Positions 1 through 6,109 of a DNA stretch of 6,109 nt are shown piece by piece. The position numbers and the translations under genes were made by a program. Under the pieces are notes generated by a model. The model searched no databases. It saw only the letters and a list, made by a program, of their open reading frames with translations, and was not told the origin of the DNA. Source of the stretch: a virus (Duplodnaviria > Heunggongvirae > Uroviricota > Caudoviricetes); the IMG/VR virus record IMGVR_UViG_2778261418_000002, positions 1 through 6,109 of that record; one strand, 5' to 3'. How positions within the stretch are numbered: the stretch's first letter is position 1; each line of letters opens with the position of its first letter.

Positions 1-292
1 CATTGGCAAAGGCTGCACGCAACCCGGCCTTAATTTCCTCTACCTCATCAGCACCTGGCGATGAATCTGACAGTGCGTGATGGAATGCGTAAGCCATGTC
101 GTCGTTTACTGCAACTGGCTCTGCTTCAAGCGATGTCAGTGCGATTCGTGCCAGTTCTAGATCTCGTTCAACCATCTCAAGAACAACTTTGCAGTCCGCA
201 CCTTCTTTGCTAACGCGTCCTTTCACGTTTTCCAGATAACTAACGCTTTCGCGTGCATGGGAGATTAACTGTTCTTTGGTAAAGGTGGTCAT
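1..292 (-). CDS. hypothetical phage protein, partial (3' end lies beyond the window start)
   Basis: ATG at 292-290 with AGGAG (303-299) 6 nt upstream. Hand translation (MTTFTKEQLSSHARESVSYLENVKGRVSKEGADCKVVLEMVERDLELARIALTSLEAEP...) stays open to position 1. Absent from the ORF track, presumably because it runs off the edge. No family recognised. Confidence 0.45.
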   Translation of the reverse strand, partial: MTTFTKEQLISHARESVSYLENVKGRVSKEGADCKVVLEMVERDLELARIALTSLEAEPVAVNDDMAYAFHHALSDSSPGADEVEEIKAGLRAAFAN

Positions 293-302
293 TTGTTACT
301 CC

Positions 303-566
303 TTAACCCGCAGTGCTTTCAACTGACGAGGGGAACAAAATCGTTTCATCAAATCCGGCATTCATATCATGGACAGCAGCACACCAATCCATCGACGAAC
401 GATTATCAAGAGCCTCCATGATTACATCCATGCGGCGTAGGTCATACAGGTAAATGTTTTTATCGCCAATGGTGTAAAAGCCTATTTTTTTCGGTGACGG
501 ACAGCGATCAAGAACGTCCTGTAATTCGTTCAACCATGCTTGTTCTTTTTTTGTCAAAGTTGCCAT
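303..566 (-). CDS. hypothetical protein (~87 aa)
   Basis: Part of track ORF 303..656. The track start is implausible because it overlaps the upstream gene. Internal ATG at 566-564 (MATLTKKEQAWLNELQDV...) has an AGGA-type SD about 8 nt upstream and sits 1 nt after the stop of the gene at 568-786. Stop TAA at 305-303. Confidence 0.45.
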   Translation of the reverse strand: MATLTKKEQAWLNELQDVLDRCPSPKKIGFYTIGDKNIYLYDLRRMDVIMEALDNRSSMDWCAAVHDMNAGFDETILFPSSVESTAG

Positions 567-567
567 A

Positions 568-786
568 TCAGCTTTCCTTATATGGGTTGATTTTGTTGTG
601 CAGTGTGTTGAACGACGCCCATACCACGTCGTTATACAATTCAATAACTGGCTCAATTACTTTTCCGATTATCCAGGCCAGTAATAGCGGGGATATCGGT
701 ATCATCAACACGATAAACAGAATGAGAAACAAAAATTCTGTCGCTCTACTTTTTCGCGGATATTCTTTTCTGAATAATGTAGTCAT
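568..786 (-). CDS. small membrane protein (~72 aa, one predicted transmembrane helix)
   Basis: Track ORF 568..786 with ATG at 786-784. Hydrophobic stretch FLFLILFIVLMIPISPLLLAWIIG. Tightly packed with the next gene downstream. A GC hairpin lies directly upstream of the start (793-808). Confidence 0.45.
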   Translation of the reverse strand: MTTLFRKEYPRKSRATEFLFLILFIVLMIPISPLLLAWIIGKVIEPVIELYNDVVWASFNTLHNKINPYKES

Positions 787-792
787 TTCTTA

Positions 793-808
793 CCGCCCTT
801 TCGGGCGG
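793..808 (-). promoter_or_regulatory. RNA stem-loop (6-bp GC stem, GAAA tetraloop on the - strand transcript) 6 nt upstream of the 786 start codon
   Basis: Plus strand CCGCCC-TTTC-GGGCGG at 793-808. On the - strand mRNA it reads CCGCCCGAAAGGGCGG followed by taagaaATG. There is no U-run after it on either strand, so it is not a classical intrinsic terminator. The only purine-rich SD-like bases for the 786 start lie inside the stem. Confidence 0.4.
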
Positions 809-818
809 CCTCCTGACA

Positions 819-1031
819 TTAATCGTTGTAATAACTCATAGCTTCATTTGCAGCATCAACTGGATCAACATCCCACCAGCAATAATTTGGCTCGACTCCT
901 TCAGGTGTCCACAGTTCTAATTCATTTTTTGCCGCATTCTCGTCGCCAGTAATTTTAAAAATCTGCTCAGAAAATTTCCTCACCCACTCGTTATATTTTT
1001 CCGTATTAATGGTTTTCTGTGTATTTAACAT
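819..1031 (-). CDS. hypothetical protein (70 aa)
   Basis: Track ORF 819..1031. ATG at 1031-1029 preceded by GGAGG about 7 nt upstream (minus-strand reading of 1046-1032). No recognisable domain. Confidence 0.5.
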   Translation of the reverse strand: MLNTQKTINTEKYNEWVRKFSEQIFKITGDENAAKNELELWTPEGVEPNYCWWDVDPVDAANEAMSYYND

Positions 1032-1081
1032 AGATATACCTCCAGTTAAGGATTTGATTTTATTTACAGTGCTAAATTTAT

Positions 1082-1438
1082 TTATTCAGTTCTGGATTTC
1101 GTCGCCCTGCGTATCCGCGCTTTCGCGTTACGCTCAATCTGAATTAACTTTTCTATATTTTTCCGCCTTTCCTGTTCCTCCTGGCGCAATAGCCTTACAT
1201 CATCTGCCAGTCTGGTTTCTCTTTTCGCCACTGAGAGCATCCAGTCAAACGGCTCCACAACTGCACCGCAGATTTTACAGCGGACCTGACGCTCTTTTTC
1301 GTCAACCCGGACAGAAGCGTGATGGCAGTATGGTCTTTCCGATGGCTCATAAAGAAAATTAACTTGATTACGTGGGTCATCCTCTTTTACCGGAAATAAA
1401 ACAATATTACTTAACTCATCCTCTGGTTTTATTTCCAT
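1082..1438 (-). CDS. hypothetical protein with Cys/His cluster (C-H-H-x13-C-x2-C) and a basic coiled-coil-like C-terminus
   Basis: Track ORF 1082..1495 begins with GTG immediately after the upstream stop. Preferred start is ATG at 1438-1436 (MEIKPEDELSNIVLF...) preceded by AGGAGAGGAG. Motif PYCHHASVRVDEKERQVRCKICG, then a charged tail RLLRQEEQERRKNIEKLIQIERNAKARIRR. Confidence 0.5.
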   Translation of the reverse strand: MEIKPEDELSNIVLFPVKEDDPRNQVNFLYEPSERPYCHHASVRVDEKERQVRCKICGAVVEPFDWMLSVAKRETRLADDVRLLRQEEQERRKNIEKLIQIERNAKARIRRATKSRTE

Positions 1439-1495
1439 GCTCCTCTCCTTTGATGCGAATGCCAGCGGCAATTGAAGCCTGATAGCTAATTTCAC

Positions 1496-1918
1496 TCACA
1501 GTACCGCCTCCTGAAAATTACCCTGATAGAAAGCCAGTACACGCTGCATAGCTTCGCTCTTCCGGCACTCGCGACAGATTATATTCAGGCGCCTGTCGTA
1601 GCGGCGTATTTCTCCGTCTGGTAATGACCAGATAAGGTCCGGATCAACCGCAGATGGTTTCTTCGGCTTTGCCCTTGAGAGCTTTTTACGGGCATTTTGC
1701 CAGTCCTTACGCGCCTGTTCAGACGGGAATAACCCGTAACCAGAGTTGTATACATCGCCACTGGCAACCAGCTCTCTGGCCAGAACGCTCATCAGATATC
1801 TTGTTGCCCCAGTTTTAGTTTCCAGTTGTCGTAACGTCTCGCGCCCACTCTGGCGTACGAGTTCAACAACCTGCCCTTTAATTTTTTCCCGCTCTTCTTG
1901 TGTAAATACTTTTGCCAT
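1496..1918 (-). CDS. hypothetical protein with an HTH-like segment
   Basis: Track ORF 1496..1933 begins with TTG. Preferred start is ATG at 1918-1916 (MAKVFTQEEREKIKGQ...) with GGAGG 5 nt upstream. HTH-like segment GRETLRQLETKTGATRYLMSVLAREL; C-x2-C near the C-terminus (CRECRK). Confidence 0.55.
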   Translation of the reverse strand: MAKVFTQEEREKIKGQVVELVRQSGRETLRQLETKTGATRYLMSVLARELVASGDVYNSGYGLFPSEQARKDWQNARKKLSRAKPKKPSAVDPDLIWSLPDGEIRRYDRRLNIICRECRKSEAMQRVLAFYQGNFQEAVL

Positions 1919-1933
1919 AGGTGCCTCCGGCAA

Positions 1934-2704
1934 TCACTTTTCCGACACAATACGACTGGAGGAATCGAAAATCTGTCGGACAATATCCCGGTGCCTGTTC
2001 AGCTCCCGCAGCGCAGCGCAGACACGCTCCCACTTCTGGACATGATTTTTCGCCCGACGCAGTTCGCGGTTTGCCAAATGCAGCGATGGCAAAATCAAAT
2101 CATCAGCTCGCGTTGCAGTAAACGATGGCAGCGACTGCACAATGTCCGCTACAGTTTCTGTTTTAATATCTTCCTGTGTTGCAGCTTCCTGTACTGGTAA
2201 CGCAATGCCGGCTGGCTGAGGAAAGGCTTTACCATCATTCTCCGTTACCGATGCGACTTTCGGCTTTACTGGTAAATTCTCGCCCGGCATGCAGTAGCGA
2301 AATTTACCGTTCTGGTTTACGCGTGCCAGCCGCCCCGTTGCGGTTACTACCGCCAGCGTGGAAGCAACCTTGCGAGTGCTGACACCGAACTTACCCGCCA
2401 GTTCCTCACACGTTTTAGCGCCCTCCTGACCGATAAACCCAATCATCATGTCAGCGGTAACTTTTCGTTCGACCTCCCTGGTTAGCACATCCTGTACTTC
2501 AGATTGTGCTGGCTGCTCTTCGGCTACCCCGGATTCACCTTCACCAGCCACACGCCAGGTGTATACGCTTTTATCAACGAAGCCAGCCTTTTTCAGTTCC
2601 CACAGCTCGTTCAGTACTTCTTCACGACTGATATCAAGTCGCGCAGCCAGCTCTACCGACGTGGCTTTTCCCATCGCTTTCAGTGCGTCAAAAACAGTCT
2701 CCAT
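1934..2704 (-). CDS. phage protein with two winged-helix-like domains separated by an acidic linker (resembles prophage proteins I recall as DUF1627; unverified)
   Basis: Track ORF 1934..2704, ATG at 2704-2702 with GGAAGGA SD. N-terminal wHTH-like [43 protein letters not shown]; acidic linker; second wHTH-like [44 protein letters not shown]. Lies directly downstream of the P-like gene. Confidence 0.6.
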
Positions 2705-2736
2705 AAATTTCCTTCCGGTAAAAATTACTTCTCAAC

Positions 2737-3402
2737 TCAAACAAACCCAGCCGCTTTCCGGCGTTCATATTCCTGTTTCAGCAACTCAATTGGCGTTGGT
2801 CCCGCAGGACGTATGGGTGCTGCCAGTTGCCTACGGACGGGTGGAACACTCAGTCCGTTACCAACATGCTTTGCCCATTTCGTCAGCTGCCGTTCTGCAA
2901 GCCGTTTTAACTCCCCCTCGGTCATCTGCCGCTCAATCCCCTTTGAACGCATCTCGAGGCAAATGTGATACAGCACGGGCTGAGGCCACGGATATTTATC
3001 GCTTCCGTCGTATCGCCAGGACTCATTGCGCCAGCGGCGATATTCCTCCATCACGTTATCCACCGTCAGACCAAATGGATTTGCCCCGCTCTCCGAAATC
3101 AGCGCCACAAACTCAGCCAGGTCCGGAGGCCATGTTTCACCCGCCCGGCAGCGGTCCATGCACTGGCGGCAGACCTGCCGGATTTGCTGCTCAGTCATCG
3201 CGCCAATCTGTACAATCCAGAGCTTCGAAGGTGCGGCCCCGTTCTTCTGGGTCCAGCGGTTCGAATAAATCTCCCCCATGAGTTCCCACAGCTTCCAGGC
3301 AGTTTCCGTCGTTGATAAATCCGTTTTCACGTTCCCACTGCTCACGTGCTGCCCGAATTTCCTGAACTGCCCGTGATGCGGTGCCACCTGGTGCTGCTGC
3401 AT
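2737..3402 (-). CDS. replication protein P-like (lambda P family helicase loader)
   Basis: C-terminal two thirds align by eye to lambda P as I recall it ([19 protein letters not shown] / [13 protein letters not shown] versus lambda AESYPWKSNAHYWLVTNLY / TDAELRRKAADEL). ATG at 3402-3400 has a strong SD (AAGGGGG, about 6 nt spacing) but overlaps the O-like ORF by about 212 nt out of frame. Alternative in-frame ATG at 3198-3196 forms ATGACTGA with the O-like stop. Start uncertain. Confidence 0.75.
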
Positions 3403-4231
3403 GGTTTACCCCCTTGCTGACTGGTTTAGCCTGCGCCCTGACGTGATTTACGTGACGGGCGAATTTCTGCTCCCACTGAACCTGCGTGAAAACTTTACCC
3501 TCCGCTGCCCAGTAGTCCCGGAAGGCGGCAAGTTCAGCTGGTGTAAATTCCGGCTCCGGCAGAGCCACTCCCCACAGAGCCGCCCGTCGTCGAAAATCCG
3601 GCGACGGATGCCAGCCATCGGTCATCGGAAATTTCCCGATGGGTTCGCTCAGGCCTTCCAGGTAATCAGGTTCCGATGTTTGCAACGGCACGCCATTTGC
3701 CTCACTGACCGGAGCACTCTCGCGCACGCGCGCGTTATGTGTGGGGTTTAATTCTTTATCTGTATCTTTATCTGTCGTGACTCGTCGTGACATGTCGTGA
3801 CATATGCGTGACTCGTCGCGCGCCCCCTCATTCTGTTTTCGTAATTTTTCCCTCTCGCGCTGCGCTCTCTTGCGCTCTGCCGGGGATTTCGCGGTTTGTG
3901 AAACGTTGCCATTGTCCTCTTTCAGTACCTGGCGTTTTTCCCATCCACTGATCAAATCTCCATCAAGTACCCGCCCCTGCATTGCCTGTAAAATTGAATC
4001 AATTACTTCTTCCGTCACATCAAGCGCACTTGCTAAATCTTCCGTCGTGACATCAATGTGACCACGTAGTGACACGCCGTGACATGTCGTGACATTTCGT
4101 GACGCGCTCACCAGAAGGTGGATATACACAGCCATCACTGTTGCGATTGGCTGCCCTGACACCCTGGCAATTGTTCGCCACTTAGGGTCATTTGGCATGT
4201 CATGCCATAATCTGAGCCAGGCGTTAGCCAT
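3191..4231 (-). CDS. putative replication initiator (lambda O position; YdaU/DUF1376-like by recollection)
   Basis: Track ORF 3191..4237 begins with GTG. Preferred start is ATG at 4231-4229 ([18 protein letters not shown]...) with GAGGTG SD. Sits between the CII-like and P-like genes as O does in lambda. Contains two embedded GTGAC repeat arrays and an AT-rich block, as ori lambda lies inside O. The family name is from memory. Confidence 0.65.
3775..3812 (+). repeat. iteron-like array A: four direct (T)CGTGAC repeats at 10-11 bp spacing
   Basis: GTGAC at 3777, 3787, 3797 and 3808. Preceded by an AT-rich block with two ~11-bp direct repeats (tctttatctg, 3752-3774) and an alternating CG tract (3721-3734); followed by GCGCGCC. 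Confidence 0.55.
4044..4103 (+). repeat. iteron-like array B: six direct GTGAC-core repeats at 10-11 bp spacing
   Basis: GTGAC at 4047, 4058, 4069, 4079, 4089 and 4099, all in the same orientation. The motif falls in all three codon phases of the O-like frame (peptide [20 protein letters not shown]). Confidence 0.55.
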
Positions 4232-4302
4232 ACTCACCTCTTTTGATACCGAATCTTTTTACTCACAAATTGCCGGAAGTGATCTGGTATGAATATCGCG
4301 AG

Positions 4303-4728
4303 TCAATGCACAGCCACAATATTTCCTGCAGGGCCACCACGATTCATCTGGTTGAAACCAGCGATCGCCACTGCGACAAAATCATCAGCGTCTCTCACCA
4401 GTCGTTCCCGCGTCTCCACCAGCTCCCGAAAATAGGCTGAACTGTGGCTGCGCATTCGGGCCACCAGCAGAGGTGGCATTGCTTTTTCGATCGCTGGTAA
4501 CAACGCCTGAATTTTTTTAACCGCATCAGGGGTGTCTTTCTCCACCCAGCGGAATATTTTCTGAGTATTGCGAGCCAGGGCTTCCGGATGGCTGTCGTCA
4601 TATAGCTCCGGGAACGTCATACCAAGCTCAAAATAAGCCCGGGTTATTTCAGCTGCCGGAACTTTTTCACCGTCCGGATGCGCCCAGACATTCATCGCCA
4701 TGCGGATGTGTTCATGCTTGATTTTCAT
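4303..4728 (-). CDS. ydaT: YdaT-like protein (CII functional analog in Rac/CP-933P-type prophages)
   Basis: Track ORF 4303..4728, 141 aa. Begins MKIKHEHI and ends IVAVH, matching my recollection of E. coli YdaT in length and termini. Its ATG overlaps the stop of the Cro-like gene (TAATG). Occupies the cII position. Confidence 0.7.
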   Translation of the reverse strand: MKIKHEHIRMAMNVWAHPDGEKVPAAEITRAYFELGMTFPELYDDSHPEALARNTQKIFRWVEKDTPDAVKKIQALLPAIEKAMPPLLVARMRSHSSAYFRELVETRERLVRDADDFVAVAIAGFNQMNRGGPAGNIVAVH

Positions 4729-4940
4729 TAATCATTCTTTCCTTCGTTCGAGGTGCTATCCTGCTTCTTGTAAAGTTCTGGGTTGTATTTCAATTCACCG
4801 TTAGTAATTTCATCCAGTTCCATTGCGCGAAGTTTGGGAATAACTGCTTTCCACCGCACAACAGCCACATGTGAAATTCCAAGAGCCTCAGCTACTAGTC
4901 GCTTTTTTTTGAAATAGCGCAGAACATCATCTTTGAACAT
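4728..4940 (-). CDS. Cro-like HTH regulator (YdaS/DicC-like)
   Basis: Track ORF 4728..4940, 70 aa. ATG at 4940-4938 with AGGAG SD at about 6 nt. HTH signature KRLVAEALGISHVAVVRWK. First gene of the operon divergent from the repressor. Confidence 0.75.
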   Translation of the reverse strand: MFKDDVLRYFKKKRLVAEALGISHVAVVRWKAVIPKLRAMELDEITNGELKYNPELYKKQDSTSNEGKND

Positions 4941-4969
4941 AAAACTCTCCTGTTATTTCGAGCGGGAGG

Positions 4970-4983
4970 GTAACAATAGTTAC
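4970..4983. promoter_or_regulatory. operator-like palindrome GTAAC-AATA-GTTAC (proximal to cro)
   Basis: Perfect 5-bp inverted arms with a 4-bp spacer in the cro/cI intergenic region. Lies where the -10 of a leftward promoter would fall, given the perfect TTGACA -35 at 4996-4991 on the - strand. Confidence 0.45.
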
Positions 4984-5017
4984 ATAGAAATGTCAACCAT
5001 AGCAACATCACTTGGTA

Positions 5018-5031
5018 GTAACATTGGTTAC
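5018..5031. promoter_or_regulatory. operator-like palindrome GTAAC-ATTG-GTTAC (abuts repressor start codon)
   Basis: Same half-sites as the 4970-4983 site. Ends 1 nt before the ATG at 5032. Contains TAACAT, a possible -10 for a leaderless repressor transcript. Confidence 0.45.
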
Positions 5032-5706
5032 ATGAAAAACACTATCAGCGAACGTATTCGGAATCGTCGAAAAGACGTTGGATTAACCCAACAGCAGGTT
5101 GCGAAAGCAATCGGCATATCTCGTGTATCCGTAACAAAATGGGAAAATGGCTCTTCAAAACCTGACGGTGAGAATTTGCATCTACTGTCAAAATTGCTTT
5201 CCAAATCTCCTGAATGGATTCTTTATGGAAAGGACTGTCACGATAAAACCGATGATCTGCGTCTGAATCAGTACCCTTACATTAGTGACAACATCGCCCG
5301 GTTGCCCGTTTTAACGTGGGAACAGGCTGGTTATTGGGATATGAGTTGTCCAGTAACCGAGATTCCTGGTATTAAGAATTGGGTTGATGTCATGACAAAA
5401 ACCGCTGAAAACTCTTTTTTATTGCATGTTGAGGGAGATGCGATGACAAACTCTAACGGCCTCCCAACCATCCCCGACGGATCTACCGTGCTGATCACAC
5501 CATGCTCAAGTAACATTAGAGAACTGGTGGGAAAAATAATCTTAATCCAATTGGAAGGAACGCCAAACGTAACACTAAAAAAAGTTGCGATTGACGGACC
5601 AAACATCTATCTGTTGTCACTGAATCCGCTTTACAAACCCATCGAACTGAATGGTGGTTACACCATTAAAGGTAAAGTTTCACAAATACATCAATACTTA
5701 GACTGA
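5032..5706 (+). CDS. CI-like prophage repressor: N-terminal XRE-type HTH plus C-terminal LexA/S24-like domain with Ala at the nucleophile position
   Basis: Track ORF 4933..5706 begins with TTG. Preferred start is ATG 5032 (MKNTISERIRNRRKDVGLTQQQVAKAIGISRVSVTKWENG), which leaves both operators intergenic; ATG 4990 is an alternative. C-terminal domain aligns by eye to lambda CI/LexA: QAG at the Ala-Gly cleavage position, VEGDAM where lambda has VEGNSM and LexA VSGMSM, and TLKKV...LNPLY versus lambda TFKKL...LNPQY. Confidence 0.8.
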   Translation: MKNTISERIRNRRKDVGLTQQQVAKAIGISRVSVTKWENGSSKPDGENLHLLSKLLSKSPEWILYGKDCHDKTDDLRLNQYPYISDNIARLPVLTWEQAGYWDMSCPVTEIPGIKNWVDVMTKTAENSFLLHVEGDAMTNSNGLPTIPDGSTVLITPCSSNIRELVGKIILIQLEGTPNVTLKKVAIDGPNIYLLSLNPLYKPIELNGGYTIKGKVSQIHQYLD

Positions 5707-5711
5707 GTCAG

Positions 5712-5738
5712 AACCCGCATTCATTGCGGGTTTTTTAT
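5712..5738 (+). terminator. rho-independent terminator of the repressor gene
   Basis: 8-bp stem AACCCGCA / TGCGGGTT with loop TTCAT, followed by TTTTTTAT, 6 nt after the stop codon. Confidence 0.65.
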
Positions 5739-5768
5739 GCCCTCAAGTGTACCTTTTGCAACATTGTA

Positions 5769-5797
5769 TTGACTCTAATGGTAACTCTTGTTACCTT
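5769..5797 (+). promoter_or_regulatory. putative rightward promoter (PL-like) with embedded operator GGTAAC-TCTT-GTTACC
   Basis: TTGACT (5769-5774), 17-bp spacer, TACCTT (5792-5797; weak -10). The 16-bp palindrome at 5780-5795 has the same half-sites as the two operators in the cro/cI intergenic region and covers the spacer and -10. Confidence 0.4.
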
Positions 5798-5975
5798 AAC
5801 AACATACCAACCCACCCCGCCCCACAGAACGCAGGGCAATACTTCGAGTTACCAGGCAGTGGTCAGGGGGTAAGTAGCCAGCCCGAGGCGTAAGAACATG
5901 ACGGCAGGGTTCAACTTTAACTATGCAGCAGGTTTTTGTTCCGCTACCCCGGCGTTAAGGGGAAATGAGGTCAAC

Positions 5976-6109
5976 ATGGATACTATCGATCTTGGCAACA
6001 GCGAATCTCTGGTATGTGGCGTGTTCCCCAATCAGGACGGTACGTTCACCGCGATGACGTATACCAAAAGCAAAACGTTTAAAACCGAAAATGGTGCCCG
6101 TCGCTGGCT
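5976..6109 (+). CDS. hypothetical early-left gene, partial (continues beyond window end)
   Basis: ATG at 5976 with GAGG 5 nt upstream; frame open to the window end (MDTIDLGNSESLVCGVFPNQDGTFTAMTYTKSKTFKTENGARRW...). In-frame upstream ATG at 5898 is an alternative start. Resembles a small Rac-region protein I vaguely recall; no name assigned. Confidence 0.5.
   Translation, partial: MDTIDLGNSESLVCGVFPNQDGTFTAMTYTKSKTFKTENGARRW

Follow-up and report, generated by a model that had tools for sequence, protein, structure and literature searches.

A modular winged-helix protein of the DUF1627/YdaW family encoded behind the replication genes of lambdoid prophages

The window considered here, that is, the whole stretch of 6,109 nucleotides (nt) formed by positions 1 to 6,109 of IMG/VR record IMGVR_UViG_2778261418_000002, is the 6.1 kb immunity and replication region of a Rac-/Stx-type lambdoid prophage (Stx, Shiga toxin), as judged from its open reading frames (ORFs) and their Pfam and PHROG profile matches. 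Its early-right genes lie on the minus strand, and the coding sequence directly behind the replication genes is the subject of this analysis (Table 1). The product matches DUF1627 (PF07789) over the whole of the 155-position profile, with 320.4 bits against a gathering cutoff of 28.1 (E = 2.2e-96), and PHROG 630 from position 1 to 252 of 253 (E = 3.9e-132), which shows, at the level of sequence, that it belongs to the Pfam DUF1627 / PHROG 630 'YdaW family' of Rac-/Stx-type lambdoid prophages. In RefSeq, a 100%-identical gene is named 'DUF1627 domain-containing protein', and the annotation of E. coli O126:H45 MIN10 has a matching gene order, flanked by a tRNA-Ser/integrase end on one side and by the Q/RusA region on the other. 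Already catalogued, the entity is not new as such; the analysis adds a map of its modules, the paralogy and charge asymmetry of its two winged helices (WH1 and WH2), and a negative result on covariation with the replication genes. Literature searches on DUF1627 and on DUF977, the family of the downstream neighbour, returned no functional study of either, and YdaW is listed as a predicted, uncharacterised 'MarR-type' transcription factor (PMC4797297, PMC9308461). The name 'lygF' found in the literature is merely that of a gene in the Salmonella sdf region.

The AlphaFold2 model of the protein, built with an alignment of 43 full-length family members (20-79% identity), contains two winged helix-turn-helix (wHTH) modules with a predicted local distance difference test (pLDDT) score of 93-98, and the topology H1-S1-H2-H3-S2-wing-S3 is present twice. 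An earlier reading of this DNA, made from the sequence only, had described two such modules with an acidic linker between them and a helical, basic C-terminus, and both the model and the isoelectric points (pI) agree with it, the latter being 4.4 for residues 61-85 (mostly linker 1) and 10.7 for the final 61 residues. The structure-prediction check proposed with that reading likewise returned a winged-helix fold of the DNA-binding type twice (AlphaFold2, Foldseek). Linker 2 has an entropy of 2.96 bits, a family net charge of -5.1, and an occupancy of 0.79, and is followed by the C-terminal module, whose tail helices (208-255, pLDDT 92-97) begin with a basic, amphipathic helix of 30 residues (208-237). 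The predicted template modelling (pTM) score of the full-length protein is 0.34, which indicates that the modules have no fixed mutual arrangement.

WH1 and the C-terminal module are kept in all members, with zero, one, or two further WH modules between them on variable linkers; the 43 full-length members together with shorter and longer relatives carry one, two, or three WH modules. The alignment of WH1 with WH2 by hhalign (probability 95.3%, E = 2e-8) indicates that the two are paralogous and that WH2 is optional or repeatable within the family. The PF07789 model spans the region from WH2 to the C-terminus only, leaving WH1 outside. A minimal one-WH member was modelled as WH1, a tether, and a 30-residue helix with a pTM of 0.45, so that docking of WH1 and the helix is not predicted. 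For the C-terminal module, no relative outside DUF1627 was found in the PDB or Pfam, and the PDB profile matches of the protein all fall on WH2.

Conservation and charge are distributed unevenly over these modules. Helices 1 and 2 of WH1 are the most conserved segment (1.18 bits), with a ratio of nonsynonymous to synonymous substitutions (dN/dS) of 0.24, and the family consensus of WH1 includes EIAARL...L..L.E...G.....G.W. Helix 3 of WH1 has a family net charge of -2.2, with conserved E/D at positions 26, 29, 36, and 39, as opposed to +2.4 for helix 3 and +2.7 for the wing of WH2, where R111 is R/K in 41 and R128 in 42 of the 43 members. The first tail helix is more basic (+5.7), with R216 in 41 of 43 members and conserved R/K217, K/R219, R233, and K/R237; the consensus of the whole C-terminal module reads IPxF...DDLIxP....EIRRTK..L..LE..R.A.R...KH. 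Its hydrophobic positions (211, 215, 222, 225, 228, 231/232, 235, 241/242, and 245) have a periodicity that peaks near 105 degrees and form heptad-like runs at 208-225 and 228-245, with a break at 225-228. The protein is under purifying selection, with a dN/dS of 0.45 over its full length; the folded parts range from 0.24 to 0.40, and linker 1 reaches 0.90. The idea of a second DNA-binding protein next to the replication genes is supported by the fold, which many DNA-binding proteins use, and by the basic WH2, but not by the acidic helix 3 of WH1. Because the most conserved module carries an acidic 'recognition' helix, a description as tandem DNA-binding domains is probably half right, and WH1 is more likely to bind protein than to read DNA.

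The family is narrow in range and very abundant locally. The gene was matched in 2,615 of 5,426 complete E. coli genomes, with at most seven copies per genome (five in an O157:H7 strain taken as an example), and it is also present in Stx-converting phages. An exhaustive search of 1.84 billion representative proteins gave 181 clusters at E <= 1e-3, and the loci found in species-representative genomes with a 14-sequence alignment all belong to Enterobacterales (Escherichia, Salmonella, Citrobacter, Enterobacter, Raoultella, and Serratia). The phage records with the gene number 24 and are all lambdoid. The top match in the phage database, PP818812.1 (91% nucleotide identity), is labelled 'Actinobacillus phage vB_Apl-pPE4', a surprising label for a gene otherwise limited to Enterobacterales prophages, and this host assignment may be doubtful.

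Genomic position was compared across the window, 12 Enterobacterales genome loci, and 80 IMG/VR loci. The gene stands directly after the replication module in every one of them, with at most one or two small ORFs between, in agreement with the placement immediately after the replication genes described earlier (32 nt from the lambda-P-like gene in the window). The module itself, however, is not constant: at least four initiator types occur upstream (DnaT-domain O, DUF1376 YdaU, HTH_36/DnaD_N, and an unassigned 359-aa protein) together with two loader types (lambda P and DnaC/IstB). Among 90 full-length copies, the mean identity was 0.819 for pairs with the same loader and 0.812 for pairs with different loaders; by segment the values were 0.849 and 0.821 for WH1, 0.872 and 0.872 for WH2, and 0.785 and 0.781 for the C-terminal module, and no segment covaried with loader or initiator type. 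Moreover, the allele at one of the YdaU/DnaC loci shares 98.8% identity with alleles linked to O/P.

The GTGAC arrays inside the O-like gene had been proposed as the DNA target of the protein. They occur at only 19 loci, only with a subset of the O(DnaT-domain) alleles, and are missing from the nearest relatives outside the own phage, which are 94-95% identical behind O/P and 92.6% identical behind HTH_36/DnaC. This candidate target was therefore rejected, and the arrays are probably the origin iterons of that O allele. A k-mer search across about 65 loci revealed no repeat that accompanies the gene. Just one repeat recurred, GCATCACAAAATTCA, at about 4.4-4.6 kb upstream of the gene and not in the window; it forms an inverted pair about 145 bp apart in two loci (L003 and L021) and about 30 others, and the pair probably represents the operators of another immunity type. 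The lack of covariation, the near-identical alleles behind different modules, and the frequent absence of GTGAC arrays do not support an origin-specific role or the suggestion of an ori-associated factor. By these sequence comparisons, the protein appears neither to read a phage-specific origin nor to contact a phage-specific initiator or loader, and joint expression early on and/or a target common to all these systems best accounts for the strict synteny.

Table 1. Features of the window and modules of the DUF1627 protein (nucleotide positions are those of the window)
Feature	Position	Strand	Remarks
LexA/S24-type CI-like repressor	4933-5706	+	
P22-Cro-like gene	4728-4940		
YdaT/CII-like gene	4303-4728		
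O-like initiator with DnaT domain	3191-4237	-	
GTGAC array, 6 copies	4047-4099		inside O-like gene; spacing about 10-11 bp
GTGAC array, 4 copies	3777-3808		inside O-like gene; spacing about 10-11 bp
Lambda-P-like helicase loader	2737-3402	-	upstream neighbour, same operon; Pfam Phage_lambda_P E = 2.8e-16; PHROG 109 E = 3.3e-62
Shine-Dalgarno-like GGAAGGA	2710-2716	-	in the 32-nt gap between P-like and DUF1627 genes; 5-6 nt before ATG start
DUF1627 / YdaW-family gene	1934-2704	-	complete coding sequence in ORF list; 256 aa; TGA stop 1934-1936
WH1	residues 4-52; 2549-2695	-	most conserved module; helix 3 acidic
Linker 1	residues 53-83; 2456-2548	-	acidic, variable, predicted disordered; pLDDT 41-69; entropy 3.12 bits
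WH2	residues 84-138; 2291-2455	-	basic winged helix, WH1 paralogue (by sequence comparison); pLDDT 93-96
Linker 2	residues 139-184; 2153-2290	-	Pro/Ala/Glu-rich, length variable; pLDDT 48-62
C-terminal module	residues 185-256; 1937-2152	-	'IPxF...DDLIxP' segment, then helices 208-237 and 239-255
DUF977 / Ren-like gene	1496-1918	-	downstream neighbour; Pfam DUF977 E = 1.8e-29; PHROG 142 'Ren-like' E = 2.8e-48
Zinc-ribbon gene	1082-1495		small ORFs besides

The DUF1627 gene appears to share a transcript with the replication genes, as part of the early-right operon. No minus-strand terminator-like site was found between P and the genes downstream of it, which fits co-expression with the replication genes. 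In K-12, silencing of the Rac repressor derepresses ydaU-W along with ydaS/T, and this fits co-expression of ydaW with the replication genes as well.

Some details of the neighbouring genes emerged from the same comparison. The O-like and P-like ORFs share 212 nt in different reading frames (3191-3402, minus strand), and the P-like ATG at 3402 is preceded by a strong Shine-Dalgarno sequence, AAGGGGG. In divergent Serratia loci the P frame is kept across the overlap (33-36% identity, E about 1e-9), and the C-terminal frame of O is weak or absent there. The RefSeq annotation of P, 153 aa from 3198, is probably too short, and phrog_15931 matches O and P like one fused protein. The DUF977 gene probably starts at ATG 1918, with GGAGG before it, rather than at TTG 1933 as in the mechanical ORF list. 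The Rfam scan of the window gave two sub-threshold matches and nothing else; one of them, Trp_leader at 5646-5739 on the plus strand (26.5 bits against 41), lies just past the CI-like stop and most likely reflects a GC-rich hairpin with a T-run (…AACCCGCATTCATTGCGGGTTTTTT), i.e., an intrinsic terminator and not a leader.

Related modules and remnants were met at other loci. Small single winged-helix genes (HTH_24-like or FaeA-like) lie between the loader gene and the DUF1627 gene at three loci from Citrobacter/metagenome-assembled genomes and Raoultella (L005 5662-5991, L006 5663-5992, and L013 5506-5799); they match the WH2 hidden Markov model (HMM) at about 1e-6, so that related WH modules also occur as standalone genes. 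Furthermore, deletions repeatedly end inside the DUF1627 gene, as in P0122 (O-like N-terminus fused to the DUF1627 C-part), P0136 (YdaU N-terminus fused to the DUF1627 C-module), loci L007 and L008 (6001-6561), and K-12-type Rac, where ydaW breaks off after about residue 154, with the rzpR/trkG side adjoining. K-12 YdaW is thus a deletion remnant that keeps WH1 and WH2 and has lost the conserved C-terminal module.

Immediately downstream, a DUF977/Ren-like gene follows in 67 of the 90 loci. The C-terminal motif of the window copy, NIICRECRKSEAMQRVLAFY, matches lambda Ren at E = 4e-7, and by this sequence match the DUF977 gene is judged a true Ren relative, so that the local order O-P-DUF1627-ren parallels lambda O-P-ren. 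In a two-hybrid assay, Ren and O interact with the Rex proteins. Homology of the DUF1627 protein itself to lambda Ren/DUF977 was also considered, as BLASTP hinted at two shared stretches, but it was rejected: hhalign against the neighbour gave a probability of only 3.7%, and the WH2 HMM reached E = 0.015 with lambda Ren and >= 0.3 with DUF977, which is read as generic winged-helix similarity. At one locus (L004 7004-9073, Escherichia ruysiae), a 689-aa STAND / ORC-CDC6-like P-loop NTPase replaces the Ren-like gene right after the DUF1627 gene and has the look of a defence-type moron occupying a variable accessory slot.

The sequence-only reading had stated that no function could be assigned from sequence, and this still holds. 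The most likely of the readings weighed, though a tentative one and short of being the expected outcome, is that of an early accessory protein whose tail helix self-associates and whose WH modules sit on flexible tethers, with nucleic acid bound by WH2 and the tail and a protein partner by WH1. The hydrophobic stripe of the tail helix would drive self-association into a coiled-coil-like dimer or a higher oligomer, leaving several winged helices hanging from one hub by flexible acidic tethers. Nucleic acid would then be bound by the basic WH2, and perhaps also by the tail helix through its basic face, either with little sequence preference or at a target common to all these phages and hosts, and WH1 would bind a conserved protein partner rather than read DNA. 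Valency would be set in evolution by gain or loss of WH modules (1 to 3), and the target would be common to Enterobacterales hosts or to all these phages instead of being a phage-specific origin, initiator, or helicase loader.

Several points weigh against this proposal. Nucleic-acid binding, oligomerisation, and the protein partner are all inferred, and the existence of one-WH members without the basic WH2 implies that DNA binding by WH2 is not the core activity of the family. The conserved acids of WH1 helix 3 could be structural salt-bridge partners and not an exposed surface, and the tail, whose heptads break at 225-228, could equally be an amphipathic helix that docks on a partner protein. 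In addition, the strict synteny could reflect a replication-linked function exerted through a host factor common to both loader types. This mechanism and the other roles weighed below (transcription factor, anti-defence, replication) are not mutually exclusive.

A classical sequence-specific transcription factor, dimerising through the C-terminal helix and acting on phage or host promoters in early lytic development, is an unlikely but serious candidate. A wHTH followed by a C-terminal dimerisation helix is a frequent layout of transcription factors, the fold is nearest to ArsR/MarR regulators, the recognition helix and wing of WH2 are basic, and YdaW stands among the listed predicted factors cited above. 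However, all HTH matches in Pfam (which fall below the gathering cutoffs) and NCBIfam are under threshold; the window protein, for example, scores 15.4 bits with MarR_2, where 27 would be needed, and only 10-12 of the 43 members match MarR or MarR_2 at E <= 0.01. The dimer helices that flank the wHTH of MarR proteins are missing, WH1 starting at residue 4 and both WH modules being flanked by low-pLDDT linkers. The acidic helix 3 of the most conserved module, the disordered tethers of 30-45 residues, and the variable number of WH modules are atypical of operator readers, and the search across about 65 loci found no repeated motif accompanying the gene. The profile matches also raised the question of a Z-DNA/Z-RNA-binding protein like Zalpha, which is among the best fold and profile matches. 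In ADAR1 Zalpha, the Z-form is recognised by N173, Y177, P192, P193, and W195; these positions align with A114, A118, K134, F135, and Y/W137 in WH2, only the aromatic wing residue being kept, and the window protein gave no match to the Pfam z-alpha model. The matches arise because Zalpha is a minimal winged helix, and this identity, rejected on the profile alignment, is very improbable indeed.

The fixed position speaks for a function linked to replication, which is judged improbable overall. The gene follows the helicase-loader gene at all loci (the window and about 100 others) and is co-expressed with the replication genes, plasmid iteron initiators likewise use tandem winged helices, and the description given for lambda ren, which occupies the corresponding place, is 'likely involved in DNA replication'. 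In its narrow form, in which the protein would bind the phage origin, the GTGAC iterons, or O/P, such a function is far less probable still, given the missing covariation with loader or initiator, the near-identical alleles behind unrelated modules, and the scarcity of GTGAC arrays. In its broad form, the protein would act on a host replication protein used by both lambda-P- and DnaC-type modules, e.g., DnaB, either favouring the phage or stopping host replication; yet the gene is often truncated or fused in prophages (K-12 ydaW, P0122, P0136) and is absent from lambda, indicating that it is dispensable for replication as such. Alternatively, the protein might be an anti-defence or anti-exclusion factor that, like the Ren-like neighbour or with it, keeps abortive-infection systems (Rex, retron-type toxins) off the early replication complexes, the acidic WH1 serving as a protein-binding or decoy head. 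This is rather unlikely, although the truncated K-12 YdaW (WH1 and WH2) scored as a blocker of RcaT, the toxin of retron-Sen2, when overexpressed in a genome-wide screen (also cited in PMC11951105). The adjoining Ren-like gene, the variable accessory slot just downstream with its STAND NTPase, and the conserved acidic surface of WH1 point in the same direction. The screen, however, provides one match with an overexpressed, truncated allele, and blockers can act indirectly; its authors list blockers that affect induction or mating. Furthermore, the PADLOC and anti-defence families were matched only through generic HTH models (Csa3/CasR wHTH), so that membership in such a family was rejected, the segment-level dN/dS indicates purifying selection and not an arms race, and homology to Ren is unsupported, as the C-module has no match and the WH2 HMM scores lambda Ren poorly.

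Because the protein does not appear to be origin-specific, the search for its partner is narrowed to targets common to all these phages or hosts, and the modular map (an invariant core of WH1 and tail helix, with an optional basic WH2) marks the pieces worth testing. The family deserves attention since the gene occurs in about half of the complete E. coli genomes, frequently in several copies and in a fixed slot of the early-right operon, and also in Stx phages. A speculative and improbable extension is that DUF1627 represents a widespread, unrecognised class of early prophage counter-defence factors, multivalent WH 'shields' that, with Ren or like it, could mask replication intermediates or sequester a host sensor or toxin (of Rex, retron, or other abortive-infection systems). 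A protein-binding head would then be provided by WH1, acidic and ultra-conserved, and the number of WH modules would tune avidity. If true, this would explain the fixed slot, the independence of the replication module, the adjacency to ren-like genes and an accessory slot, and the match in the RcaT-blocker screen; a counter-defence or host-takeover factor would also bear on prophage induction and on the spread of Stx phages. If the protein is merely a generic DNA-binding accessory, the finding is ordinary. On balance, it looks like an ordinary phage accessory protein, somewhat more notable for being ubiquitous in E. coli and Stx phages and for its possible role in counter-defence.

Like the ArsR/MarR transcription factors, the DUF1627 protein has a fold of three helices and a β-hairpin, which superposes at about 1 Å root-mean-square deviation, and its WH2 has a basic helix 3 and wing; unlike them, it lacks flanking dimerisation helices and metal or ligand sites, gives sub-threshold profile scores, and has its two WH modules in tandem, set on long disordered linkers, helix 3 of WH1 being acidic. 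The profile matches to the PDB are generic, led by ADAR1 Zalpha/Zbeta (1.4e-4) and AspA (1.6e-4) and followed by ArsR/MarR proteins in a range extending to 1e-2. The best full-length Foldseek matches are instead tandem-WH scaffolds (ScpB, ESCRT-II subunits, DDRGK1/UFL1, and SelB WH2-4), whose WH repeats bind mainly protein or RNA rather than reading operators; these matches are weak (E >= 1.5e-3, TM score about 0.2), and the WH modules of the scaffolds pack together, whereas about 30 disordered residues separate those of DUF1627. Matches in BFVD are chiefly to uncharacterised phage tandem-WH proteins. No Rep initiator family of the RepA/RepE/pi type was matched, and covariation with initiator type or with the GTGAC arrays was not seen.

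In H-NS-like nucleoid proteins, an oligomerisation helix is joined by a flexible linker to a DNA-binding domain. The DUF1627 protein would share with such a bridging layout only the inferred logic, a self-associating helix with tethered nucleic-acid-binding modules, as its domains come in the opposite order, have unrelated folds, and show no similarity in sequence. Ren/DUF977 resembles it in setting, as a small winged-helix protein whose gene directly follows those for replication in the early-right operon. It differs in having one WH and the C-terminal motif 'CRxCRxSxAMxRVLAxY', which the DUF1627 protein does not have. The DUF977 Pfam score of the latter is 13.3 against a cutoff of 22.1 and covers residues 79-136 only; the weak likeness to Ren is at the level of WH2 (phrog_142 E = 4.9e-5; hhalign against lambda Ren, probability 28%), and the C-module HMM matched no Ren-like ORF among 5,896 ORFs. 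The nearest counterpart is YdaW of the K-12 Rac prophage, which shares both family and slot: the window copy follows an O(DnaT-domain)/lambda-P module, whereas Rac ydaW follows ydaU-ydaV, the YdaU/DnaC module.
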